Virus record (IMG/VR): IMGVR_UViG_3300046653_000062
Direction: 5' to 3' (one strand)
DNA: 20,000 bases
Origin: an uncultured virus (IMG/VR IMGVR_UViG_3300046653_000062)
Taxonomy: Duplodnaviria > Heunggongvirae > Uroviricota > Caudoviricetes
Translations under genes and position numbers: made by a program
The notes under the pieces: generated by a model
Databases searched by the model: none
Told to the model about the DNA's origin: nothing
Seen by the model: only the letters and a program-made list of their open reading frames with translations
In this document: positions 1-15,768 of the stretch, piece by piece
How the letters are laid out: every line of letters begins with the position of its first letter
How positions within the stretch are numbered: position 1 is the stretch's first letter

Positions 1-738
1 ATCGAAAATCTCGAAGTCGTGCAGGCCGCCCGACAGTGTATGAATGGCGTTCGGGTCGTTGTCGGTGGTGCCCGGCCGCAACTCGGCTTTGATCAAGCGA
101 ATGCAGACGTCTTCTAGCGCGATTGGAGCACAGAGAAGGCGGCCGCGCGCGCGGATTTTCAGCCCGGCCTCGTTCACGAACCCGGCGCGAATCTGCTTTA
201 GACCTGCGATGAGGGTGGCCTCGTTGAGGTCTACATCAACGCTCGGCCGGTTGGCCCACGAGCCGCCGACGAACGGTGAAGTTTCTGTAAGCGGATGCGC
301 GGCGTTGAGCAACGAAACACCGTCACCACCGATGGACGCATTATATGTGCCAGCGGTGTTCAGGATATTCATTGCCTGAATCTCCCAGTAGTCCGCGAAC
401 GACTTAGCCAACCCAAGATTCATTGGGTTGAAATCGTGCTTGTACAGGTTATCGTCGATCGCCTTACGAGTGATGGCGTAGCCAAGACCCGCCTCGATTG
501 GCTCCATGTTGTAAATCCAACGCTGTCCGGCATTGTTGTCGAACAGAGTCTGCGCGCCTTCTTCCTTCAGCGCGGCAAGCTGCAAGTAACGAGCCTGGAC
601 AGTACGTTCAATCTGCATTTTAGACTGAATCGTGCGGAACAGACGCCGCCACTGCGGCTCGATCTGCCTGTACTGACCCGTGATAGCCGCGAGACCTGGG
701 AGTAGAAGGTCGCGTTCGGCTGCGAGATTAATAGCCAT
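1..738 (-). CDS. Major capsid protein (Mu gpT-like family), 3' end beyond window edge
   Basis: Not in ORF track; hand translation from ATG 738 (SD GAGGAG upstream) is open to position 1: MAINLAAERDLLLPGLAAITGQY...LGYAITRKAIDDNLY...GGDGVSLLNAAHPL...DLNEATL...ELRPGTTDNDPNAI. These motifs are typical of this capsid family, and the gene lies downstream of scaffold and portal. Confidence 0.88.
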   Translation of the reverse strand, partial: MAINLAAERDLLLPGLAAITGQYRQIEPQWRRLFRTIQSKMQIERTVQARYLQLAALKEEGAQTLFDNNAGQRWIYNMEPIEAGLGYAITRKAIDDNLYKHDFNPMNLGLAKSFADYWEIQAMNILNTAGTYNASIGGDGVSLLNAAHPLTETSPFVGGSWANRPSVDVDLNEATLIAGLKQIRAGFVNEAGLKIRARGRLLCAPIALEDVCIRLIKAELRPGTTDNDPNAIHTLSGGLHDFEIFD

Positions 739-1358: not shown

Positions 1359-1390
1359 TTCTTAAATCCTGGGTTGGGTTATCCGGCTTT

Positions 1391-1511
1391 GCTTTCAACG
1401 TTCCCCGGCGCGGAGACGGAACAGCTTTACCTGGGTTTGCGCTTTCAACGCCGAGACGGAACTGCGCGGCATGCTTTTCTCTCGTCCTCAACGCCGAGGC
1501 GGAATGACGAG
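1391..1511 (-). repeat. Three tandem copies of a structured RNA-like motif (UUC-CGY...RCG-UU-GAR) in the leader of the capsid genes
   Basis: Copies at 1391-1425, 1439-1467 and 1481-1511 share TTCCGYCTC and CGTTGA on the minus strand; each is closed by its own stem. Confidence 0.75.
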
Positions 1512-1524
1512 CCTGCTGAACTGT

Positions 1525-1560
1525 GGGGGTCAGCCTAAAACCAACAAAAGACTGGCCCCC
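1525..1560. other. Stem-loop just after the stop of the 262-aa gene
   Basis: GGGGGTCAGCCT-12 nt-AGACTGGCCCCC imperfect inverted repeat with no U-tract. Confidence 0.5.
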
Positions 1561-1571
1561 GTTACGCACTA

Positions 1572-2360
1572 CTAGAATTCGTTATCACCAGCAATGGTGT
1601 GCGACGGAGCCCAACTTGGGTCTGCCTGCTCACGAACTGCTCGCAAAAGCGTGTCTCTCTGCGCCTGGGGGTGGTTCACGTCGAAGTAATCATCACGCTT
1701 CGACTCGATACCCCAATTCCGTTGCCTCATGAGAACCTGCTCACGGGCGCTATGCTGTTCTTCACGCCGAGCTGCGTTTGTCAATCCAACAGGACGCTCC
1801 ATTAAAATCATGCCGTCATGCTGAACTGCTTCGTTCTCTTCTCCCGAGAAGACGCCGGGAAGCCTGTCGTTAAGAACAGGCCGCCAGCCGCCGTCTCTTT
1901 GGAGCCGAGAAATATAAACACCACGCTCTTCATTGTAGACGAACCGGGTTTTCCATTCAAGAGTATACCCCTCTTCTAGAGTAGCTTCCACAAACTCTGT
2001 CGGGAGGTCAAATGGGTTCGACGCCGCGAACTGCGCGCGCCGGGTCACGGTCTCGCCGTCGCGGCCGATAGCCGTTGTGACAGCGCTCTCTCGGGCCTGT
2101 GGGCGCTGGGGCGCGCGCGCCTCGACGCGGATTTCTCTGCGGTCTGCAACCTGCTTGCCGAGCGCAGAAATTTGACCCGCCATCTCTTTTTGAGAGGCGG
2201 TCATCATTTGCATAAACTGCGCCATCTGACCCGCAAGGGCGTCAACAGCGCTAACTTCGGCCTCATCGGCCTTAGGTTCTGGGGCTTTCGCCATAGGGAG
2301 TTCCTTCGGAGTTGCCGGGATTTTAGCCGCCTTACGCCAGTTGTACGGAGCTTTAGACAC
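1572..2360 (-). CDS. Conserved phage head-module hypothetical protein
   Basis: 262-aa ORF overlapping the scaffold stop, with motifs RDGGWRPV and DGMILMERP. It lies between the scaffold and capsid genes. Confidence 0.7.
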   Translation of the reverse strand: MSKAPYNWRKAAKIPATPKELPMAKAPEPKADEAEVSAVDALAGQMAQFMQMMTASQKEMAGQISALGKQVADRREIRVEARAPQRPQARESAVTTAIGRDGETVTRRAQFAASNPFDLPTEFVEATLEEGYTLEWKTRFVYNEERGVYISRLQRDGGWRPVLNDRLPGVFSGEENEAVQHDGMILMERPVGLTNAARREEQHSAREQVLMRQRNWGIESKRDDYFDVNHPQAQRDTLLRAVREQADPSWAPSHTIAGDNEF

Positions 2361-3405
2361 CGGCCCCTCCCTTATACTTATCTCTTGACCAGAGAAGATT
2401 AGATTTACCGCTGTCGACCTCAGCGACTCCGCGCGCGTATTTCGCCAGGGCCTCGTGCTCGGGGAGGTCGGAATACATCTGAACCGCCGCCCGGCGCTGG
2501 TCCTGAGAAAGCTGGATACGCCGCGCGCCGCCCTGCGCCGCGCCGAATGTGGATCGGGCCGGAGGCGCGGCCGGGGTCTGCGCCTGCCTTGGGGCAGGGG
2601 CGGAGCGTTGCCGCCCGCTGTCGATTTCCTTGGTCACGGTCTTGTACCCCATCTGCTCGTCGATAAAATCGAAATATTCATCCGACTCCACCGGAATTCC
2701 CCGCAGCTCCGCAGTACGGGCGGCGGCCTCGGCTAGTCCGGCGCGTGCGGGTTTCAGGTAAATGTCTTCCCGGTGTTCGCGCAACCAGTCCTGGGTTTTA
2801 GGCGGAAACGCTCTGATCTGCGATTCGAACCCATCTTGCGCCGAGGGCTGCTGATACTGGGAGACGTCAGGCGGCGGCGCCGTCTCGACGTTGCGCTTGG
2901 CCTGCTCCAGGCTTTGAATCTGAGAGGAGTTCTCGGTCAGAACCGCGACTGCTCGGGTGTGCGTGTCCCAGTCGTTGCGGGACGCCGCCGCCGCCATGGC
3001 GGCTTGCGCCCGCTCGATATTGGACTTCGCCAGCGCAATGGCGTTGTCCACCGCCGCAACGGTTGCTTCGCGGTAGTTCCGCTCACCCTGAACGGCGCTG
3101 TTGGCGTTGGCGTTGGCGCGGCGCTCGGCCTCGGCGTTCTCGCGGCGGAGCCGCTGCACTTCTGACTCGCGCTCCGCATATTGCGCCTTGAGCTTGGCCA
3201 GGGCATCGGGTTCCTCCGCCTCGCGGATCGCAGGGGAGTGGGCGTCTTCGGCGTGCTCGATAATGATCTCATCGAACGGAGCCGCCGCGATCACGGCGCC
3301 GCCTTCGTCAACAACCTCAAACTCTACATCAGCCGCCGTCTCGCGGGCGCTCTCGGCCGTCATCCGGTCAAGCTGCGCCGCTGCTGCTCTTTTACGCCTG
3401 GACAT
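2353..3405 (-). CDS. Putative capsid scaffolding protein
   Basis: 350 aa, acidic N-terminus, long Ala/Glu/Arg coiled coil, C-terminal IQLSQDQRRAAVQM...KYAR helix motif; SD AAGGAG; located between portal and capsid genes. Confidence 0.7.
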   Translation of the reverse strand: MSRRKRAAAAQLDRMTAESARETAADVEFEVVDEGGAVIAAAPFDEIIIEHAEDAHSPAIREAEEPDALAKLKAQYAERESEVQRLRRENAEAERRANANANSAVQGERNYREATVAAVDNAIALAKSNIERAQAAMAAAASRNDWDTHTRAVAVLTENSSQIQSLEQAKRNVETAPPPDVSQYQQPSAQDGFESQIRAFPPKTQDWLREHREDIYLKPARAGLAEAAARTAELRGIPVESDEYFDFIDEQMGYKTVTKEIDSGRQRSAPAPRQAQTPAAPPARSTFGAAQGGARRIQLSQDQRRAAVQMYSDLPEHEALAKYARGVAEVDSGKSNLLWSRDKYKGGAGV

Positions 3406-3897: not shown

Positions 3898-4097
3898 GTG
3901 CTGGACCTATATTTCTCGTGAAGTTCTTTGGCGATATCTCCCGCTATCGTCAGGCCATTAAGCTGGCCAACCTGTCTCAGGTATTCGTCATACTCTGAGC
4001 CATGGGCGAGACCTTCAAGAAGCTCGAAACGTTTTGTTTCCAGGGCCTTCATAAGCTTCTCGAAGAAAACCTCGTCCCAATAGCTTATTTGTACCAT
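3894..4097 (-). CDS. Small helical hypothetical protein preceding the GroES-like gene
   Basis: 67 aa, LAHGSEYDEYLRQVGQLNGL; ATGA overlap with the next gene. Confidence 0.7.
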   Translation of the reverse strand: MVQISYWDEVFFEKLMKALETKRFELLEGLAHGSEYDEYLRQVGQLNGLTIAGDIAKELHEKYRSST

Positions 4098-4492
4098 GGC
4101 TTGAAGTCATTAATTTCCTGAACGCTCGGCCAGACACCCTTGAACTGAACTGCGCGATCATCAATCGTCATCCACGCGGCGGGCTTCTCTTTCGGGAAAT
4201 ACAGCTCGCTAATCGCATGGTTAACCTTCTCGGCGTTCTGCTCGCCGAAAGTCTCGCGAATATGGTCCTGCATCCACCCGTAGATAGCGCTGTGCATCGC
4301 CGCCACGCCGCCCGACAGGTTAGAACGGGACGAGTATATCGTGACCAGGAAGCCTGCGGCCTGATACTCCAGAATCGCCGCCATGGCGCCGTGGACAGGG
4401 CCGTCAGTGATGACGTCCGCGCCCTGCCACCCCGACGTATAGGCGTGGATTACGCCATCGAAGTCGAGGGATACTGTTTTTGGGTAAGACAT
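4085..4492 (-). CDS. HAD-superfamily phosphatase/nucleotidase-like protein
   Basis: Motif I LDFDGVIH, motif II IYSSR, motif III K (EKP), motif IV IDDRA; SD AAGGA upstream. Confidence 0.85.
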   Translation of the reverse strand: MSYPKTVSLDFDGVIHAYTSGWQGADVITDGPVHGAMAAILEYQAAGFLVTIYSSRSNLSGGVAAMHSAIYGWMQDHIRETFGEQNAEKVNHAISELYFPKEKPAAWMTIDDRAVQFKGVWPSVQEINDFKPWYK

Positions 4493-4629: not shown

Positions 4630-5141
4630 TTGCCTCCGTACCACCTTTTCTTCTCTAGACGCCCCTCGCCGCTGCCCGCGCCAGCGTGCATATGAACCTT
4701 GCCGCCGCGTTTACGCGGCATCGGGCCGGGGCCAGCCTGCCCGCCGAGAGCGCCCACGCCAGCCATCGGGCCGCCAGCTCCAGGCATCGGGCCGCCAGCT
4801 CCAGGCATCGGAGCTGGCATTGGATGCGGCGCCATGGCTCCAGGCGGAGGCATCGGAACCGGCATGGCCGCCGGGGCTGCTCCCTGCGACGGGTTCACCA
4901 CGATATTGACCTTGGTGTGTCCCTTGCCCTTGTGATGCACGGCTCCGCCGTGGGCGCGCTTCAGAGCCGCCGGTTTCACCATATGCTTCACCAAGGCGCG
5001 ATCTTCCGCCACGTCGCTGTGATGGTCGCCGTGAGGGTGGCCCCCATGAGCGTAGCCGGCGTGCGCCGACGTGGAATGAAGGCCCAGGTGAGAATGACGC
5101 GCGGCGTGGGTCGCCTTCGCGTGCGCCTTGATATGCTTCAT
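4626..5141 (-). CDS. His/Lys-rich, Pro/Gly/Met-rich low-complexity virion-module protein
   Basis: 171 aa with repeated (H/R)GG-x-V motifs and a GAGSGEGRLEK tail; SD GGAG upstream. Confidence 0.75.
   Translation of the reverse strand: MKHIKAHAKATHAARHSHLGLHSTSAHAGYAHGGHPHGDHHSDVAEDRALVKHMVKPAALKRAHGGAVHHKGKGHTKVNIVVNPSQGAAPAAMPVPMPPPGAMAPHPMPAPMPGAGGPMPGAGGPMAGVGALGGQAGPGPMPRKRGGKVHMHAGAGSGEGRLEKKRWYGGK
4764..4811. repeat. 21-bp coding tandem repeat, about 2.3 copies
   Basis: CATCGGGCCGCCAGCTCCAGG x2 + CATCGG, encoding PMPGAGG repeats. Confidence 0.85.
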
Positions 5142-6164: not shown

Positions 6165-8288
6165 TTAGATAGCGCCTGGGAGCGTTGGGGCCTGCCCCGG
6201 AGCGCCCTGTTCCCCGCCGCCGAATATCTGCGCGGCGAGAGGATGCGTCACAAGATGCTGGATAAGCCGCATGTATTCAAGCTGCTTGTCGCCCTCGATC
6301 TTGGCCATTTCGATCTGCTGACGCGACTGAATATCCGCCATTTTCGTCTGGCTCTGCTGCGCGGCCGACGCCACCTTGGCTTGGTTGGCCTGCTGTTGCT
6401 GCTGAACCTTCAGCATCTCCGGGTTCGGTGGAGGCGGCGAGCCCGGCGAAGGCTCAGGCATGAACAGCTCGTCCGCGTCATCGATCTGCATCATGTGAAG
6501 CACACGGGACGCCACCTTGCGCGGATTGAACACCCCTGGCGGGGTCTGCTGGGCCACCGTCCCAAGCGCGATCGCCTTCATGAGCCGGTGCGCATGGCTG
6601 GGAGTGTTCGGGTCCGAACGAGGGACCAGATTATAGTTGCCGAGCGCATGAATGACCGCGTCCATGGTCCACGCGGGCTGGTCGGGGTCAGGGCGATATA
6701 GGACCTCGGGATGCTGGCGCAGGTGCTCCACGATCAATTCAAGCTCGACGCTCTGAGAGTCGTGAAGCCGGGTGTGCACCGCGTTGAGGATTTTCCCGGC
6801 CTGCTCGATCGCCGCCAACATGGTGCCCACGGGCACGTCCGCCTTGCCCTCGGCGGTCGGAAGCTCCGCAGTCCCGCCCAATTTCTGCCCGGCGTTGGCG
6901 ATGTTTTCGGAAAGCGCGATCAGGCTCTGCGACGGCTCCTTGTAAGGGAGGGGCATCACCGCGTCCGCCAGCTTCACGCCGCCGGGGACGTCCACCGGAG
7001 CGCCGCCGCCGGGCGGGACGCGGAACGTGTTGTTGCTCTGCTTGGCCCCGTTCTTGGCGTACAAAAAGCCTGGGAAGTTGCTGAACATCCCGGCGTCAAG
7101 CAGAAGCCGCCATGCGCCGGTCAGGGCAGACGTAGCGTTACCGAGAATTTGCAGAAGACCCGTGCAGTAGAACCCGAAGGTGGGAGCGAAGCCAAAGGGA
7201 ACAAAAGTGCGTCTGCGGATGAAATCTTCATCGCCTTCGTCCCAATCGCGTCTGATCTCCAGAATTGCTCGTGACGTGAGGTCAATGGTGATTCGATAAG
7301 GGAGCGGAAGACCTGTGGGCTTTCCGTCAAGATGGTGCTCAAACTCGGGGAGGTCGATATCAGCGTACGTCTCGTAAATTGTGTGCACCTGATCTTCAGG
7401 GCGGGTCACGTTGAGGTTTACGCCCTGAGAGCGCGCCACCGCCGCGTCGAACACGTTGATATTGGCGTCGGGAAGCTGGATGGGAATGTCCCGGTAGACC
7501 CCCAAGAGCTGCATCCGCTTGAACGTGGTGCGCTGCATCGGGATGATATGGGTCACACGGGGCGCGGTCTGAATGTCCGTGGTCGTGTTGGCTACAACCA
7601 AGTGCTCGGCGTCCACCATCTCGGACACCGGACGCCGCCGCATCGGGCAGAAGTACACCTTTTTAAAGGCCATCCCCGAAAACCCCACCATAAACAGCAA
7701 TCTGTCGGTGCCGGGGATAAATTCTGTAGCCTTTTTAGTGAGATACCAGTTGATCTCTTGTTCAAGCTTATCCGCGAGCCAGTCTTTCGAGGCGGTCTGG
7801 GAGCCGAAAACCGCGATCTTGGCCGGGCCATTGCTCGGAATCAGCTCACGCCGGGCGTTCCCCTGAAAATGCAGGCACGCCTCGCCCAAAAGCGGGTGTC
7901 GGACAGTCGACATGCCCTCAAGCGGGGCTGAGGTGCTGGCGAGGTCGCTCCGGGGCTCCTCGACCTTGAACCCGAGAAGCTTGATCCCGTTCGCGCGGGT
8001 CTGCAACCACTCCGAAAAGCTCCTCCGGTCCTCCTCGACTCCCTCGATAAGATCGACCGCGAGACCGTTTAAGGCTGATTCGTCAATAAATTCCGCCAAA
8101 TTAGCGTTGTGGTCGCCCGCCGCCTCTTTCGAGTTGTGGTTCCGAGGGCTGAACTCGATGGTTACCCCGCCGTCCGGCTCATCAATGACAAGCGCGTCGT
8201 TCTCCTGAGCAAAATGAACGCCATTCGGTTTAAACGCGGGCTGGGCGTCCATATATTTCTGAAAATCGAAGACCTGTGCGGCTGTCAT
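6165..8288 (-). CDS. Portal protein (P22-like, large)
   Basis: 707 aa directly after terL; motifs HNANLAE, VRHPLLGEAC, GMAFKKVYF, LLDAGMFSNFPG, MPLPYKEPS, PVGTMLAAIEQ and a Gln-rich coiled-coil C-terminus. Confidence 0.88.
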   Translation of the reverse strand: MTAAQVFDFQKYMDAQPAFKPNGVHFAQENDALVIDEPDGGVTIEFSPRNHNSKEAAGDHNANLAEFIDESALNGLAVDLIEGVEEDRRSFSEWLQTRANGIKLLGFKVEEPRSDLASTSAPLEGMSTVRHPLLGEACLHFQGNARRELIPSNGPAKIAVFGSQTASKDWLADKLEQEINWYLTKKATEFIPGTDRLLFMVGFSGMAFKKVYFCPMRRRPVSEMVDAEHLVVANTTTDIQTAPRVTHIIPMQRTTFKRMQLLGVYRDIPIQLPDANINVFDAAVARSQGVNLNVTRPEDQVHTIYETYADIDLPEFEHHLDGKPTGLPLPYRITIDLTSRAILEIRRDWDEGDEDFIRRRTFVPFGFAPTFGFYCTGLLQILGNATSALTGAWRLLLDAGMFSNFPGFLYAKNGAKQSNNTFRVPPGGGAPVDVPGGVKLADAVMPLPYKEPSQSLIALSENIANAGQKLGGTAELPTAEGKADVPVGTMLAAIEQAGKILNAVHTRLHDSQSVELELIVEHLRQHPEVLYRPDPDQPAWTMDAVIHALGNYNLVPRSDPNTPSHAHRLMKAIALGTVAQQTPPGVFNPRKVASRVLHMMQIDDADELFMPEPSPGSPPPPNPEMLKVQQQQQANQAKVASAAQQSQTKMADIQSRQQIEMAKIEGDKQLEYMRLIQHLVTHPLAAQIFGGGEQGAPGQAPTLPGAI

Positions 8289-8302: not shown

Positions 8303-11047
8303 CTACATCGGATAGAGGGGAATGTCATTGCGCGCTCCGCTACCGGACGCGCCGCCCGTATCGGGGTCATTCGCCGCTCTTATCTCTTCGCGACGAGCCA
8401 ACATATTCTGTTGCCGGAACCACCAGAGCGCATAAGTGGCGGAGTCGGTCAAATCATCATACCGCGCTTTGGGGAACGCCGCCATTTCATCTTCAACCAT
8501 GGTCGCCCAAGGCCGGTTCGGGCGATAGATCATACCGGCGGACCAGATGTGTTGCACCCGGTTCGCCCGCACTTCCTTATCGGCGCGACCAGGATTGACG
8601 AACTCGATCCCGAACTTCTCTTGAAAAAGAAGTCTCTGCAACTCCTGGACAGCGGATATCCCGGTCGCCTTCGCCTCCACTATCAGCCGGTCCACATGGA
8701 ACCGCTTGCAGGTGTGCCCGATCCACTCGACCAGACCCCACGCCTTCTTCTGACGCTCCAGAAACAGCTCGGGTGGCTCCCCCCACTCCTGAATCAGGTC
8801 CGGGCCATGAAGCTGCAACCATTTCCGCCACGCTGCGATCAAGAAGACGCGGGGCGTCCCGTCGTCGGCGTAATTGAGCCCCCAGACGGTCATGGCCGAG
8901 GGGTCGTTCTCGTCATGATGCGTGTAGGCCGGGTCGACCGAGGCCAGGATGAAATCGAACGTGGGGTATTTCCCGTCTTCCGGTTCCCAGACGTTCCAAT
9001 ATTCGTTCTTGAAGATACCGCCGCCGCGCGGGGCAGGTCTTTGTTGATACTGACTGGCGAAAGCATGCTCCCCGAGCTTCAAGCATTCCTCGACAGCGGC
9101 GGGTGGGAACCGCGCTTCCCAAAAGTTTTCGCCGTCAGTAGACCTGGGATCACTCCATCCGATCGAAGTAACGCAATGTCTACCATCTTCATATAACATG
9201 GGTATCATAAGATGATCGTACCCAAGATCTGCACTAATAATAGTCCCAGAAACATCAGATTCATGAACGCGCTGCATTATACAAATAATGGCGGACTTTG
9301 TCATGTGATTTAATCTGTTAGACATTGCCTCACGGAACCAGCGAACAGTCTCCTCACGTATAGTTTGGGATTCACCTTCCTTAATATTATGGGGATCATC
9401 TAGAATTACTACGTCTGCTCTTTCGCCAGTACCAGTTCCTCTTACAGAAGACGCAAATTTCCAACCAAACTTGTTATTGGATATTTTCGTTACTCCCTTC
9501 TGACGCATCGTAAACTTGTGGCCCCAGAGGTCTTGGAATTTCTGGCTCTCAATCAGGTCGAGCATCCGCTGATTGTCGCGTTCAGTCAGAAGCGATGAGT
9601 AACTGAAGTTGATGAAACGCTTTCCCGGCTCCCCGGCGGCGGACCACTGCCATGCGGGCCAAAAGACATTAGTCATCAGGCTGTTATGAACGATCAGCCC
9701 GTTAACCGTGAAAGTATGGTCCTCCTCGACCGTCAAACAACGGCATACACCCGGCTCGACCTGGACAACATCTGCAACCTCATCCTCATATATATTCTTC
9801 GGAAAGATATCGAAGAACGCTTTTTCCGCTTCTTCCCGCTTTCTAGTGAGAAGCCCTGGAAGAGTTGCGAATTTGGCCACTTCGTTTCTCTCCGAAGTTA
9901 TAACTTCGTACGAAATATAGACGCCTCCAGGCTGAGACTTTGTTGTTATATTAGATCGGGTTAATCTTATCCTAGAGTGTATGTTTAGGAGAAAAAGCGC
10001 TCTATGAGTATCCTCTGCAAGTTTTCGACTTACCGTTGTCGAAAAAGATATCATAGTATTTCTATTACCCTTATGGCGTATGCGGATACATCCGTCGCAT
10101 GACCAATACGCCCCAATAAAATTAGCTATAGTATTTGGCCCGGACCGAAAAATACCCTCCGGGATAAATTTGGTATAGCTGTTGCTTAAGAATAGGCCAT
10201 GTTTTTTGAGCCATGAATGAATAGGTAACTCTGCCCCCTTCTTAAATACTTTCAGTGCATTTTCTTCGGTAGATTTAAGAATTATCTTTTGGGCTTTAAC
10301 TTTTGGGTTATTATGAGTCGTTGAATACGCAAAAAATCCGATAGTTTTTGCGCAGTAGATAAAATCGTCTATGGATTCCTGATCTGCGCTGACAAAACAT
10401 AGGGAACGCTGCGAAATACATCCGTCCCCAACAAGATACCCGAGAAGCCGGGCTTCCTCCGGAGACATGGAGTTATCGCCGAAGCTGTCCCATACATGCG
10501 GGACTCCGACGTAGTCGTGATCTGTGATCTTATCAGCCGGAACCCATCCACGAGTGGTAAGAAATGGGTGGTCGTGCGCCGCGCGCACGGCGCGTCCTGA
10601 CGTGGTGCGAACCTCCACGAGCGGGAGAACTCCCTGCTCGTGAACCGCAAGCACTCGCCGGAAACGCCCGGCATGGGTAAGAACTTCGTCTCCTACGGCG
10701 ATATCGCCCAGACGCACGAACCCTCGGCGCGTCATTATGGGCTCTTCAATATATACTGGTTTCATTGACCCTGGTGGAACATTGATGAGAAGCCTTGTGA
10801 TACCACCATATGTCACTGCTTCCAAGTGCATTGCGACCGCCTCAAGCGGCCAGCCCTCCACAAACTCTCGCCCGGGCTCGATCGTGTCCCAAAAATATCT
10901 GACGAACTCCAGCAGCCCGCCGGGCCGGGCCTGCTTCTCCCGCTCGATGCGCATCTTGAACTCGTGCATCGCCGCCGCCAGAAGCTCATGTTTCTGGCGC
11001 GGGTCTCCGGTCTTGGCGAGAAGCTGCTGAAGATCAGACTGGGCCAT
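8303..11047 (-). CDS. terL: Terminase large subunit, intein-containing precursor (555-aa extein)
   Basis: Walker A RLLINVPPGSMK/S interrupted by the intein, Walker B VVILDDPH, coupling motif IMQRVHESD, nuclease motifs SVDPAY, IVEAKATG and FPKARYDDLTDS. Confidence 0.95.
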   Translation of the reverse strand: MAQSDLQQLLAKTGDPRQKHELLAAAMHEFKMRIEREKQARPGGLLEFVRYFWDTIEPGREFVEGWPLEAVAMHLEAVTYGGITRLLINVPPGSMKPVYIEEPIMTRRGFVRLGDIAVGDEVLTHAGRFRRVLAVHEQGVLPLVEVRTTSGRAVRAAHDHPFLTTRGWVPADKITDHDYVGVPHVWDSFGDNSMSPEEARLLGYLVGDGCISQRSLCFVSADQESIDDFIYCAKTIGFFAYSTTHNNPKVKAQKIILKSTEENALKVFKKGAELPIHSWLKKHGLFLSNSYTKFIPEGIFRSGPNTIANFIGAYWSCDGCIRIRHKGNRNTMISFSTTVSRKLAEDTHRALFLLNIHSRIRLTRSNITTKSQPGGVYISYEVITSERNEVAKFATLPGLLTRKREEAEKAFFDIFPKNIYEDEVADVVQVEPGVCRCLTVEEDHTFTVNGLIVHNSLMTNVFWPAWQWSAAGEPGKRFINFSYSSLLTERDNQRMLDLIESQKFQDLWGHKFTMRQKGVTKISNNKFGWKFASSVRGTGTGERADVVILDDPHNIKEGESQTIREETVRWFREAMSNRLNHMTKSAIICIMQRVHESDVSGTIISADLGYDHLMIPMLYEDGRHCVTSIGWSDPRSTDGENFWEARFPPAAVEECLKLGEHAFASQYQQRPAPRGGGIFKNEYWNVWEPEDGKYPTFDFILASVDPAYTHHDENDPSAMTVWGLNYADDGTPRVFLIAAWRKWLQLHGPDLIQEWGEPPELFLERQKKAWGLVEWIGHTCKRFHVDRLIVEAKATGISAVQELQRLLFQEKFGIEFVNPGRADKEVRANRVQHIWSAGMIYRPNRPWATMVEDEMAAFPKARYDDLTDSATYALWWFRQQNMLARREEIRAANDPDTGGASGSGARNDIPLYPM
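9683..10759 (-). mobile_element. Intein (359 aa) with LAGLIDADG homing endonuclease, inserted in the TerL Walker A motif
   Basis: Starts PVYIEEPIMTRRG after PPGSMK and ends GLIVHN before Ser. Block B AHDHPF, block C LLGYLVGDG, block E FIGAYWSCDG, block F CRCLTVEEDHTF. Removal restores PPGSMKSL. Confidence 0.93.
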
Positions 11048-12737: not shown

Positions 12738-13016
12738 TCATTTGGTATTCTTCGCGCGCTTAGCGTCATGCATGCGTCGTGACCACGCTCGTCTGTCACT
12801 GGCCGCTGTCCATTCCGCGACCGCGTCAGGCGTTGTTTCCTCAATCACCGCTTGACGTTTCAGCCTCTCAGCATCGAACCAAAGCGCTTCGGCCTCCCAG
12901 AGCGCTTCGACTAACGCCCTATCACCCTGCCCTGACTTGGCCAGTCTGGGGGCTTCTGTGGGCGTCTGGCGACGTGGTGAAAGGTAATCGTATGCCCAGC
13001 TTACAAGTTTGATCAT
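12738..13016 (-). CDS. Hypothetical protein
   Basis: 92-aa ORF with a G-rich SD; no recognisable motif. Confidence 0.55.
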   Translation of the reverse strand: MIKLVSWAYDYLSPRRQTPTEAPRLAKSGQGDRALVEALWEAEALWFDAERLKRQAVIEETTPDAVAEWTAASDRRAWSRRMHDAKRAKNTK

Positions 13017-13026
13017 ACCCCAAGTC

Positions 13027-13054
13027 CATTCGCATAAGTTAGATTATGGAAAAA
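13027..13054 (+). other. dif-like XerC/XerD recombination site
   Basis: CATTCGCATAA-GTTAGA-TTATGGAAAAA: 11-6-11 architecture with the CGCATAA and TTATG cores. The TTATGGAA arm is the Rhizobiales-type variant as I recall it. Confidence 0.8.
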
Positions 13055-13081
13055 TCAATGTTCGATGATATTCGAACAATG

Positions 13082-13107
13082 GCTAAGGCTGTTTAAACAG
13101 CCTCAGC
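13082..13107. repeat. 26-bp palindrome with one mismatch, GTTTAAAC family
   Basis: GCTAAGGCTGTTTAAACAGCCTCAGC. Confidence 0.9.
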
Positions 13108-13116
13108 GCTTAAAGG

Positions 13117-13689
13117 TTAACCGAGCTGCAATGTTTCCTTGCAGCGTGGGCAATCAGGTAAACCCACCTCATCAATCCATTTCTGAGATATTCTGATTGT
13201 ATAGTCACAGCATTCACAGATTGCTTTGTGCATTCTAATAGTTTGTTTCTTTGGCGCCGTGGAAATTGCGTCAGTATTCAGGATAAAGTGGGGAAACTTT
13301 GGTAAGTCTAAACTGTTCAATTCGTCAATAAGAGCTGGGCTTTCAGTTGTCGCTGTCATTTTACCTTCCAAACCTACTGCCTTTGCAAGCTTTCTGAACT
13401 TGCCTTTATGGCCGCATACTAGACCAACACACACATGAACTAATTCGTGAACGAGAACACCTAGGGCTTTTTGTTGAGCCAAGCTGGGATGAATGAACAC
13501 CTCATAGAAGCCGCCTTCTGAGGATGTGTCAGACCAGACTTGGCCTATCGCCTTCTTTCCGCCCCGCGACGTGAACCCCACAGTCACGCGTACGTTCTGA
13601 GGGATTATTGCGCCATGGCGCTTAAACAGTGGGCGCAACTTATCAATCGCCAACTCCAACCAACCTTCACGTGTGAGCTTTGCAAGCAT
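13117..13689 (-). CDS. SprT-like zinc metalloprotease with C-terminal Zn ribbon
   Basis: HExxH motif VLVHELVH followed by GHKGKF; C-terminal CECC...CPRC; SD AAGGA. Confidence 0.8.
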   Translation of the reverse strand: MLAKLTREGWLELAIDKLRPLFKRHGAIIPQNVRVTVGFTSRGGKKAIGQVWSDTSSEGGFYEVFIHPSLAQQKALGVLVHELVHVCVGLVCGHKGKFRKLAKAVGLEGKMTATTESPALIDELNSLDLPKFPHFILNTDAISTAPKKQTIRMHKAICECCDYTIRISQKWIDEVGLPDCPRCKETLQLG

Positions 13690-13705
13690 TCCCGTATTCC
13701 TTGTT

Positions 13706-13866
13706 TCAATCCATCAATCATAGGCATGATGTGATATGTAGCGTTTAAACGCAACATATAAGATGGGGTTTTCCAGGTTGTGAAGATTTTTTCACTCAAC
13801 CATTAAAAGGGGCTTGCGTCGAAGTGATATGTTGTGTTTTATGGTTATAGTGAATGGATGGATTGA
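13706..13866. promoter_or_regulatory. Pair of divergent putative promoters
   Basis: Both strands show TTGCGT-N26-TATRRT followed by GATGGATTGA (minus: 13754 to 13706; plus: 13814 to 13866). Confidence 0.55.
13734..13759. repeat. 26-bp palindrome with one mismatch, GTTTAAAC family
   Basis: ATATGTAGCGTTTAAACGCAACATAT. Confidence 0.9.
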
Positions 13867-13965
13867 GTTGATGGGGGGTTAAGTGAGGGTTCCGCAGGGG
13901 TTACGCAGTCTTTAACGTTTCATGCTCCCCTTGGGCTTAGCCGCCCTTTGCGTGAGCGCTGGCAG

Positions 13966-13984
13966 TACTCTTTGACATTGTGAA
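13966..13984 (+). promoter_or_regulatory. boxA-like antitermination element
   Basis: TACTCTTTGACATTGTGAA resembles rrn boxA (TGCTCTTTAACA; alphaproteobacterial TCTTTGACATTG form) and lies in the leader of the rightward operon. The embedded TTGACA has no -10 partner. Confidence 0.65.
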
Positions 13985-14098
13985 CGATCTTACAGCCCGT
14001 GGTGCGATTGTGGGTTGTGAGACATACACCAACGTGAATATGAGCTTGCCTCATGTCGAGCGTTCCCACAGTGGGAACGCTGCATATGAGGGGGTTAC

Positions 14099-14152
14099 AT
14101 GTTTGAAGATTTGAAGCTAATTGCGTTAATAATGGCGCGTGCTCCGAAGTAG
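14099..14152 (+). CDS. Possible 17-aa leader peptide MFEDLKLIALIMARAPK
   Basis: Strong SD GAGGGGG directly upstream, partly sequestered in hairpin 14049-14091. Confidence 0.35.
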   Translation: MFEDLKLIALIMARAPK

Positions 14153-14223
14153 AAACCGTTAGGTAATCACGGCGAAATCATTGAAGCCGTGAGCATCATG
14201 CGTTTAAACAGTGTGAGGGTGAA

Positions 14224-14886
14224 ATGACTAACCGGAGAAAGTGGATTGCTAAGATTATCGAAATATCGGAGGGCTTACCTAACGTGTGTCCTGACTTGCG
14301 TGTTGCATACGGCTATGCCGAACCTGGATATGATGCGCCAAGTTCGGGGATTGTCGTGTTGGCGGATTGGAACTCACGTAAGTTTGACAGTAAAGTCAAA
14401 GCAGACAATACAATGCCACGTTTGGCGAAGCTTCTAGAGTACTTTGGCGCGTCTCTGGAATGGATTGACGAATGGTTTGTATGTGATTGTGGGAAGTGTA
14501 TGCGCACAAGTGCTGACAGTCACGGGTGGAAAGCGTCTTATTGGTTTACTGGCAGTAACATAGTTTGCGCTGAATGTGTGTTGAGTGATCCTTCTGATTA
14601 TCTTGAGTATCTTCAGGGTAACGCAGAAGACGCGCTAACACTCGATATCGATCTCAGCGACCATGATTATGTAAAATTCCGCGCAAACTGTGAAACAGGC
14701 TGGCACTATGGCCAGAATGATAGCCCGAAAGAAATAGCCAAGTCATTACAGACTATGGGTATAGAGAACTTCATATTCGAGATAGACGAGGCTCAACAGT
14801 TCACAGTCATATGGTCCGTATGGATACGCATAGACGAGCTAAGACGTCTCAAGTCATATGAACGCAAGCAACGCATTGCTGCGTAG
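14224..14886 (+). CDS. Phage hypothetical protein with Cys clusters
   Basis: 220 aa, SD GAGGG; motifs YAEPGY, EWIDEWFVCDCGKC, CAEC and GWHYGQNDSP. Confidence 0.8.
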   Translation: MTNRRKWIAKIIEISEGLPNVCPDLRVAYGYAEPGYDAPSSGIVVLADWNSRKFDSKVKADNTMPRLAKLLEYFGASLEWIDEWFVCDCGKCMRTSADSHGWKASYWFTGSNIVCAECVLSDPSDYLEYLQGNAEDALTLDIDLSDHDYVKFRANCETGWHYGQNDSPKEIAKSLQTMGIENFIFEIDEAQQFTVIWSVWIRIDELRRLKSYERKQRIAA

Positions 14887-14896
14887 CGAACAAGTT

Positions 14897-14920
14897 CTAG
14901 GAGCGTTTAAACGCTCTTAG
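14897..14920. repeat. 24-bp palindrome with one G-T pair, GTTTAAAC family
   Basis: CTAGGAGCGTTTAAACGCTCTTAG. Confidence 0.9.
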
Positions 14921-14955
14921 TGATTGTTTACTATAGCAAAAGAGGGAAAAGTAGC

Positions 14956-15768
14956 ATGATTACATTCAAGATTGGCGTTAAGTCTGACAATGAGACGCCC
15001 AAAGTGGAAGAGACCCAAGGCTTTGCTTATCGAGTCGAGATTGGTAAGAACGCGTTTTTCTTCGTCGCCCATAAGGAGGAAAGGGCGCTGAAATTGTCCC
15101 ACTACAATTCTGGGCGTTTGGTCGCGCATGATTTGAACGATCGAACGGGGACAGAAGCGCAAAAGGTGGGACGGCATTTGCGAGGTATTGTGAACCGTGT
15201 GGGCGTCAAGAAATTTATTGCAGCAATCCAAAACGCGCCTGTGATCACTGAGGGTGAGCCGGAAACTTACATGGTAACCACGATTGCGCCAGAACCGAGA
15301 GAAGCGGCGCCCAAAGCGGAGGAGGGGGGAGACGTAGTCTGTGGTTGCGTGGCGTGCAAAGGGGCAGGGAAGGTCGCAAACTTTTCTGGAAAATGTCACG
15401 TGTGCGACGGCATTGGCTCGTATCGCCACACGAACAAAACTGAACTCGATAGGGTTTTGTTCCTGATTATTTCTCAGCAAGGGAAATCGAAGGGACGGCT
15501 TAAATCGAGCTGGAGCTGGGCAAAACAGAAGGAGTTGACTGGCCATGAACGCGTAACATTCAACCGCGCTTACTACGTATGGCGCTGGGCGCGGTTTCAT
15601 GGTGGGGAAGATGTAACCCTGCCATTCAATGCGAATTTCATTGGTGGGAGTGACCCTTGCAAAGAAGCGCTTGATCGTTGGTCTGAAACTGTGGCCAAGC
15701 GTGCTTTCGGCTCTGACAAGGTAGGCGCTCAGCGCTGGCACGACGCTTTCTATGGGGCGACTAGCTAA
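14956..15768 (+). CDS. Hypothetical protein with DnaJ-type CxxCxGxG zinc finger
   Basis: Start ATG 14956 after AGAGGG; motifs CVACKGAG and CHVCDGIG. Confidence 0.8.
   Translation: MITFKIGVKSDNETPKVEETQGFAYRVEIGKNAFFFVAHKEERALKLSHYNSGRLVAHDLNDRTGTEAQKVGRHLRGIVNRVGVKKFIAAIQNAPVITEGEPETYMVTTIAPEPREAAPKAEEGGDVVCGCVACKGAGKVANFSGKCHVCDGIGSYRHTNKTELDRVLFLIISQQGKSKGRLKSSWSWAKQKELTGHERVTFNRAYYVWRWARFHGGEDVTLPFNANFIGGSDPCKEALDRWSETVAKRAFGSDKVGAQRWHDAFYGATS

Follow-up and report, generated by a model that had tools for sequence, protein, structure and literature searches.

What sets the output of the capsid genes within a phage late operon? To our knowledge, large-excess capsid synthesis inside such an operon, in step with the assembly factors, is understood for a few model phages only. 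The stretch of DNA analysed here (the window, 20,000 nt from an uncultured virus of the class Caudoviricetes) raises this question through a short leader on its minus strand. The initial annotation described this leader as carrying three covarying copies of a bulged RNA hairpin and read it as an operator or a processing signal. We found the three hairpin strings on the minus strand exactly as they had been written, and the third pair of the CGY/RCG helix is indeed C-G, U-G and U-A across copies 1, 2 and 3 (Table 1). A shared sequence, AACCCAGG, had been placed after copies 2 and 3. It directly follows copy 2 (1437-1430), but the other instance is not adjacent to copy 3 and begins 16 nt further on (1375-1368), where it does reach the ribosome-binding region and contains the Shine-Dalgarno sequence. 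In the long-copy alignment described below, most of the first AACCCAGG forms the 5′ side of a basal stem that closes copy 3, with 1434-1429 pairing with 1387-1383 around a bulged A.

Table 1. The leader, its elements and the neighbouring genes in the window
Feature	Position	Strand	Remarks
P0001, major capsid protein, N-terminal part	1..738	(-)	extends past the window edge; identified by tblastn
P0002, capsid decoration-like protein, 201 aa	753..1358	(-)	first gene 3′ of the leader
Leader, intergenic	1571-1359	(-)	213 nt, between P0003 and the decoration-like gene
A/C-rich single-stranded segment with Shine-Dalgarno AGGA (1370-1367)	1359..1382	(-)	predicted open
Copy 3, full length	1383..1434	(-)	basal stem, bulged module (1425-1391) and apical stem
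Family-wide loop C[GCGCC]G, copy 3 tip	1406..1412	(-)	-53 from the start codon
Copy 2	1439..1467	(-)	same bulged module as copy 1
Copy 1	1481..1511	(-)	outer stem, purine bulge, UUC/GAR, UU bulge, CGC/GCG, YNCG-type tetraloop
Hairpin 0, GC-rich stem	1525..1560	(-)	12 nt past the upstream stop codon
P0003, conserved, 262 aa	1572..2360	(-)	directly 5′ of the leader
P0004, 350 aa, acidic, Ala-rich	2353..3405	(-)	putative scaffold by position and composition

The leader sits within a head module that fills the left two-thirds of the window on the minus strand, in the order terminase small subunit, intein-bearing terminase large subunit, portal, several unassigned genes, P0004, P0003, leader, P0002 and P0001. 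It does precede the capsid gene, as had been said, but a decoration-like gene comes first and the major capsid gene second. For P0001, 21 phage records contain a matching protein annotated as major capsid protein (57% at best, in MW202675.1, and 41% in HTVC023P). The model of P0002 has a pLDDT of 87.6, and at the top of its Foldseek list stand capsid decoration proteins or capsid entries (HFTV1, lambda gpD, SHP, Sf11, T1, Pam3); since these matches are weak, with E values of 0.01-0.2 in all top rows, we label the modelled protein decoration-like. Searches of PHROGs and Pfam gave no match for P0004, which we take as the putative scaffold from its position and composition.

Several other features of the window were recorded. 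The terminase large-subunit gene (8303-11047, minus strand) carries an intein with a LAGLIDADG endonuclease, and GC content drops to 47% over 9001-10000, within this gene region. A 135-aa head-module protein (4085-4492, minus strand) matches two PHROGs, one with the annotation phosphoheptose isomerase (E 4e-12) and one without assigned function. Short imperfect repeats at 4720-4860 (minus strand), in a 171-aa ORF, encode a tract rich in Pro, Gly, Ala and Met. Over 13001-15000 the GC content is low (45%), GC skew turns positive and the long ORFs change strand; this is possibly a divergent promoter region or an origin.

Within the leader itself, a scan gave no promoter-like site, and the ribosome site is predicted to be open, at a cost of 2.4-3.4 kcal/mol to unpair. 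A 103-codon ORF that overlaps the leader was rejected as coding, since eight of eight relatives have stops in all three sense frames. No U tract follows the stem of hairpin 0 in the window. Close relatives also have a strong predicted stem near the intergenic start, with another sequence, and in a distant set of leaders, which we call class B (CCGGY loops; the window belongs to class A), the stem at this place resembles an intrinsic terminator by eye. Hairpin 0 is possibly a stabiliser of an mRNA end.

The pattern TTCCGYN{3,14}RCGTTGAR has three matches in the 20 kb against 0.03 expected, and none of 200 shuffles reached three, a significance that is overstated because the pattern was derived from the copies themselves. 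At the DNA level the bulged module is a near-exact direct repeat with a spacing of 40-43 bp. When folded alone, copies 1 and 3 adopt essentially the drawn structure; copy 2 does so in the minimum-energy fold only, and its centroid is empty. Neither the copies folded alone (z -1.35, +0.89 and -0.47) nor the whole leader (z +0.57) are more stable than shuffled sequences.

To follow the element in relatives, we collected loci by searches with the decoration protein (8, 80 of 562 viral, 80 of 321 metagenome and 8 loci); the 169 loci from the searches that preceded the genome search gave 115 distinct leaders. The bulged module is confined to one small clade: among the matches listed, it occurs in 9 of the 115 leaders, all with at least 63% identity to the decoration protein, in 3, 3, 3, 3, 2, 2, 2, 1 and 1 copies. 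A complete 70-kb relative carries it three times, all within the leader of the decoration gene. Loose DNA patterns found 116 stretches in viral contigs, and none of 80 examined had a second copy within 300 nt; we treated these as chance. Of two tighter patterns, the first gave 11 stretches, with one new contig, L304, whose leader is the same as that of L209, and the second gave 15. Seven matches of this second pattern outside the clade were rejected, as they have no outer stem by eye and no head-gene homologue nearby.

The same intergenic region, compared across these close relatives, bears out the description of a covarying multi-copy element in a head-gene leader, with the covariation located in the outer stems. 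Eleven short copies from eight loci have 98.2% of 110 cells paired, a fraction reached by none of 500 shuffles; four of ten pairs are compensatory, all of them in the outer stem, and three of ten never vary. Eight long copies have 95.2% of 125 cells paired and three compensatory pairs, a weaker result that 10-27 of 500 shuffles match. Because the inner pairs are nearly invariant (three of ten never vary in the short copies and 8 of 12 in copy 3), the geometry with the UU bulge rests on little covariation, from closely related loci. In equilibrium folds of the whole leader, the repeats cross-pair, so that copies 1 and 2 barely form or are marginal: the pairing probability of copy 1 is about 0 in all four three-copy leaders, and that of copy 2 is 0-0.54. 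Pairing of these copies improves only when pairs are limited to 45 nt, with no improvement in L206. Given the selection on them, there is presumably a stage, co-transcriptional or ligand-bound, at which the outer stems form. A pseudoknot between the copy 2 loop and the next segment was rejected, the two being complementary by eye in only two of seven loci (L134 and L208). A palindrome, GTTTAAAC, recurs at differing positions in the leaders of L206, L208, L209 and L134.

The wider signal, missed in the initial annotation, is the type of tip found on copy 3, C[NCGNY]G. Among 85 cluster representatives, 45 have a pair of hairpins with this loop, some 80 and 42 nt ahead of the decoration gene, 69 have at least one such hairpin, and 16 have no strict hairpin in either window of search; these windows (-100 to -66 and -56 to -30) and the loop classes were chosen after seeing the data, with some labels set by hand. 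In 100 dinucleotide shuffles, both hairpins were found in 0 (maximum 0) and any in 2.3 (maximum 6), and on the antisense strand of the same 85 representatives both were found in 0 and any in 15. Among pentaloop hairpins in general, this loop accounts for 124 of 482 on the sense strand (107 leaders), as against 27 of 407 on the antisense strand and 13 of 298 in coding sequence. RNAalifold recovered two hairpins from 35 leaders of the CCGGY type, with 12 of 14 pairs compensatory, and pair counting for this type gave 89.9% of 556 cells paired, a level seen in 0 of 500 shuffles. Most hairpins of the family have stems of 5-9 bp, and what is conserved is the loop and not the helix length.

The two hairpins of a leader share their loops and not their stems. 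Across 51 within-leader pairs, stems are 0.31 identical and loops 0.90 identical, and the loop class agrees between both hairpins in 51 of 51. Stems that are unrelated while the loops match mean that the tandem hairpins are not a recent duplication. Loop-to-loop spacing is 32-48 nt, mostly 38-41. Leaders with three or four copies exist, and mixed loop classes were seen in L250, L193, L227 and L175. The 61-kb genome MW202675.1 has one tandem pair, before its decoration gene. The motif was found before the same gene in none of five further records (four cultured phages and one GenBank record, with spacers of 6-53 nt), and the L008 leader lacks it as well.

Is copy 3 a member of this family? Across 57 sources, a covariance model of class B recovered 14 leaders of that class where they were expected (one of them in the training set) and, weakly, two mixed leaders; it missed the window and the other class-A leaders, whose own alignment was too poor for a covariance model. 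Because the class-B model misses class A, homology of copy 3 to the family hairpin rests on loop, position and basal pairing, the last being GGY/RCC pairing in 15 of 23 leaders against 8.7 expected. On these sequence features, copy 3 is probably the orthologue of the start-proximal hairpin of the family, and we propose the C[GCGCC]G loop at its tip as a putative recognition site. The tips of copies 1 and 2 can also be read as C[UCGGC]G, at -139 and -96 from the start codon, which would place the three tips of the window 43 nt apart. This match may be incidental, because in these copies the tetraloop register is preferred over the family pentaloop register by 3-5 kcal/mol, and the C[UCGGC]G reading is broken in one copy (L133). 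Pentaloop hairpins of the family type at the copy 1 position in L207, L208 and L209 favour the pentaloop reading.

Two groups of leaders depart from this layout in ways of their own. In the clade of L138, L212, L213, L219, L221 and L264, the loop is replaced by C[GGAAY]G, 50-120 nt before the decoration gene, and a conserved GAUCGCGGCU is added about 45 nt before the start codon; GAUCGCGGCU is also present in L141. In class-B leaders such as L143, L151, L153, L195, L260 and L275, a terminator-like stem and a sigma70-like promoter lie just before the first hairpin. This arrangement, which the clade of the window lacks, suggests a dedicated capsid transcript that starts at the hairpin in class B. 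An unannotated tRNA-like sequence in MW202675.1 (L009, ~7150-7230) lies just before the terminator and promoter of that leader, by eye.

At what level does the element act? The proximal loop lies 33-52 nt from the start codon (sd 3.9 nt, 57 loci), while the intergenic length ranges from 43 to 741 nt, and the distal hairpin falls inside the upstream coding sequence in four loci. Since hairpin position tracks the start codon and not the upstream gene, control is probably translational. The same geometry argues against an antitermination site of the nut/boxB or put type, which would modify RNA polymerase for the long late operon. Pentaloop hairpins are the form of boxB, and 6 of 38 class-B leaders, as against none of the coding controls, have a sigma70-like -10 box whose end lies 3-8 nt ahead of the first hairpin. 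A promoter-like site directly upstream was found by a strict scan in 1 of 17 class-A leaders. The pair persists in intergenic regions of 43-80 nt, with its distal hairpin inside the upstream gene, no terminator separates the hairpins from the gene, there is a single site per genome where this was tested, and the leader of the window has no promoter-like site; we consider antitermination very unlikely.

A processing or cleavage signal, with irregular stems of the RNase III kind or guide sites, could separate the capsid message from that of the scaffold and so set their ratio. Copy 3 is a long irregular stem, and the leader, with no promoter-like site of its own in the window, lies between the putative scaffold-side genes and the capsid genes. 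RNase III needs about two helical turns, however, and the short stems of most family hairpins, with their conserved loops, speak against this second proposal of the initial annotation, which is in our view unlikely. A DNA-level repeat, either arisen by neutral duplication or serving to bind a transcription or packaging protein, would explain the near-exact direct repeat of the bulged module and folds that are no more stable than shuffles. Yet stems vary freely and keep pairing, those of the two hairpins are unrelated in sequence, and the signal is strand-specific, which makes such a repeat the least probable of these accounts, with only a slight chance of being right.

Given control at the RNA level, the loops may be read by a protein or may contact each other. 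We mapped six changes of loop class on a 79-locus tree, to which L290 adds one; labels on the tree were partly set by hand, and L290 was left out of it because its capsid gene is truncated. In six of the seven changes, both loops carry the same new sequence, including GGAAY, ACGCU, ACGAU and CCGUU, the exceptions to the rule being L227 and the mixed leaders L250, L193 and L175. In the C[GGAAY]G clade, L138, L219, L221 and L264 have two copies and L212/L213 one. None of these four new loops can form a kiss of four pairs with itself. Paired loops that keep their identity where complementarity is lost are expected if one factor reads each loop, and the co-changing loops therefore favour a putative protein reader over kissing loops.

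An architecture that needs no protein would fit some of the data: tips that kiss, or bulged modules that dock, would give a compact 5′ fold, which would shield the abundant capsid message or make the ribosome site accessible. In 116 of 124 hairpins the loop has complementary bases at positions 1 and 4 (GCGC, CCGG, UCGG), so that most loops could kiss; a kiss of two CG pairs is possible even for the changed loops except GGAAY; and strong stems stand at leader starts. Kissing loops would be expected to keep complementarity when they change, but the four changed pairs (ACGCU/ACGCU, ACGAU/ACGAU, CCGUU/CCGUU and GGAAY/GGAAY) retain identity and lose four-pair complementarity. Moreover, none of the 51 pairs has loops that are different, mutually complementary and non-palindromic, and leaders with three or four copies exist. 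We regard a protein-free structure as doubtful and prefer a protein reader.

The best reading of the leader is the one first offered, a protein-binding RNA operator, of the general kind that MS2, Aca2 and P22 represent: a conserved loop sits on covarying stems in a 5′ leader, at a fixed distance from the translation start. More doubtful is the place given to the bulged UUC/UU/GAR module, which, found in 9 of 115 leaders as against the family-wide C[NCGNY]G tip, is probably not the recognition element of the family as a whole. The suggested tuning of capsid-to-scaffold stoichiometry gained no support from the analysis, nor did RNA processing. Sequence, conservation, covariation, position and uniqueness per genome are direct observations on this element. 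Transcription, protein binding, the reader and the direction of control are what we infer from them, and on balance we judge it moderately probable that the leader is a protein-read element of translational control.

We propose that the leader would be a cis-acting mRNA operator of repeated hairpins that controls translation of the decoration and major capsid genes. Its unit, recurring every ~40 nt, would be a hairpin whose stem is free to vary and whose C[NCGNY]G tip is fixed, the last copy lying 33-53 nt before the start codon. At least two identical tips would be read by a protein, probably phage-encoded and oligomeric. In the largest subgroup, CCGGY, the last hairpin would compete with a helix that buries the Shine-Dalgarno sequence and the AUG, so that binding would switch translation on. 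In the clade of the window, the ribosome site appears open and lies at least 13 nt past the last stem, and binding would more likely stabilise or enhance the message than block it. This clade seems to have added the UUC-CGY/RCG-UU-GAR module under the tip, copied one to three times, which would give three tips 43 nt apart; the same factor, or a second one, probably uses this module as an additional contact surface.

Predicted opening of the ribosome site bears on the direction of control. Class-B leaders offer an alternative pairing, between the start-codon region and the 3′ arm of the proximal hairpin, which extends a hairpin over the Shine-Dalgarno sequence. Forcing the hairpins in class B lowers the median cost of opening the region from the Shine-Dalgarno sequence to the AUG from 12.3 to 10.0 kcal/mol (easier in 28 of 37, harder in 3), although forcing any hairpin tends to free downstream sequence, and leader-shuffled controls are exceeded by a small margin (11.0 vs 9.95, 25 of 36). 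Class A has no such switch: the median moves from 7.2 to 6.9, and opening is easier in 8 of 23. Because opening is eased in class B and the ribosome site of the window is open, activation or stabilisation is somewhat likelier than steric repression, a lean that we hold only modestly.

Which protein might read the tips? P0003 is a candidate, and the scaffold, decoration or capsid protein or a host protein may serve instead. A P0003 homologue lies upstream in 97 of the 115 leaders, among the matches listed; of the 18 leaders without one, many come from truncated contigs. The probable start of P0003 is residue 23. The family matches only a PHROG of unknown function and no Pfam family. It is widespread among head modules and has an alpha/beta core that is modelled with confidence; structural searches gave no clear match to its fold (VIA Z at most 4.2, Foldseek E no better than 0.09, Atlas best 0.78). 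P0003 has at least some other job, because HTVC023P and CRP-901 carry homologues before the same gene and have no such hairpins. Within the P0003 family, both ACGCU phages, which count as one event, have His in place of a conserved Arg, and the ACGAU phage has Tyr in place of a His; these two coincidences with loop changes are too few to count. Three gene trees each need six to seven loop changes, and none singles out a gene as the reader. We give only an outside chance to the specific proposal that the P0003 family, with an undescribed fold, is a translational activator that reads the tip arrays, with the loop code (GCGCY, CCGGY, ACGCU, GGAAY) repeatedly switched in step with this protein and the second, bulged module of the window's clade as a further binding site.

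We then compared the element with known systems. The suggestion that it may belong to an undescribed RNA family agrees with Rfam 15, which has no relevant match at the hairpins: there were no hits in the window as a whole, two weak hits in a search of 1200-1700, both outside the hairpins, and three hits at E up to 5 from 15 loci, none in a leader. No description of the motif turned up in the literature searched, which lay largely outside subscription journals. Lambdoid nut boxB and HK022 put are also short hairpins, boxB with a pentaloop and put a two-stem unit, but they are tied to promoters and terminators, whereas the element here is tied to a start codon.

The closest mechanistic analogue, judging from the sections of the source available, is the dual hairpin of the ANTAR target RNAs (EutV, NasR, AmiR), in which two short hairpins with conserved loop residues are read by a dimeric protein (PMC3369931). 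As far as that text describes them, both systems have two hairpins, a conserved loop and closing pair, variable stems, constrained spacing and a competing alternative structure (PMC3369931). Membership fails on loop size, loop sequence and spacing. In the same sections, ANTAR loops have 6 nt with A1 and G4, as against 5 nt in C[NCGNY]G (GCGCY, YCGGY, ACGCU and others); ANTAR linkers are 5-12 nt, as against about 40 nt from loop to loop; and a terminator follows the ANTAR hairpins, where here a start codon does. No ANTAR domain was found in the 26 proteins of the window or in 64 proteins of the P0003 family.

Other precedents lie in phage operons. Autoregulation by the P22 scaffold acts on its own gene, but the element here is 3′ of the putative scaffold gene and 5′ of the decoration and capsid genes. 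The parts of the P22 report available describe translational autoregulation by the scaffolding protein, and to that extent the two share post-transcriptional control inside a head-assembly operon (10.1101/2022.12.13.520362). For Aca2 and Aca1, the accessible portion of the source describes a phage protein that binds 5′-UTR motifs of anti-CRISPR operons and controls translation (PMC13551039). In that account the targets are acr genes and the HTH or RHH proteins are encoded in the operon, whereas here the targets are decoration and capsid genes and the adjacent P0003 has no clear fold match. Rfam GP20-a and GP20-b and the csRNAs of Fremin et al. 2023 are, like our element, predicted cis-regulatory RNAs directly upstream of phage head genes, five of the csRNAs described in the sections available being upstream of the major capsid gene (PHA00201) (PMC10690425). 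Four of the six files listed in that supplement, alignment files aside, contain no match to the motif or to a contig, and the tandem-hairpin signal could overlap one of the 8,495 models of that study. Our verdict is that the bulged hairpins of the window are a clade-specific elaboration of a broader tandem-loop leader absent from Rfam 15, and a variant of the dual-hairpin operators.

The family offers a compact, testable element in dozens of lineages. Because none of the four cultured phages checked carries it, tests need reporters. Natural variants in which both loops changed together make it possible to identify the reader directly, by exchanging loops among lineages. Were that reader encoded by the phage, the loop variants would be orthogonal RNA-protein pairs. 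Should P0003 prove to be an activator that reads the tips, the family would be a naturally diversified set of orthogonal RNA-protein switches and would provide a feed-forward link from the head-assembly genes to capsid output.
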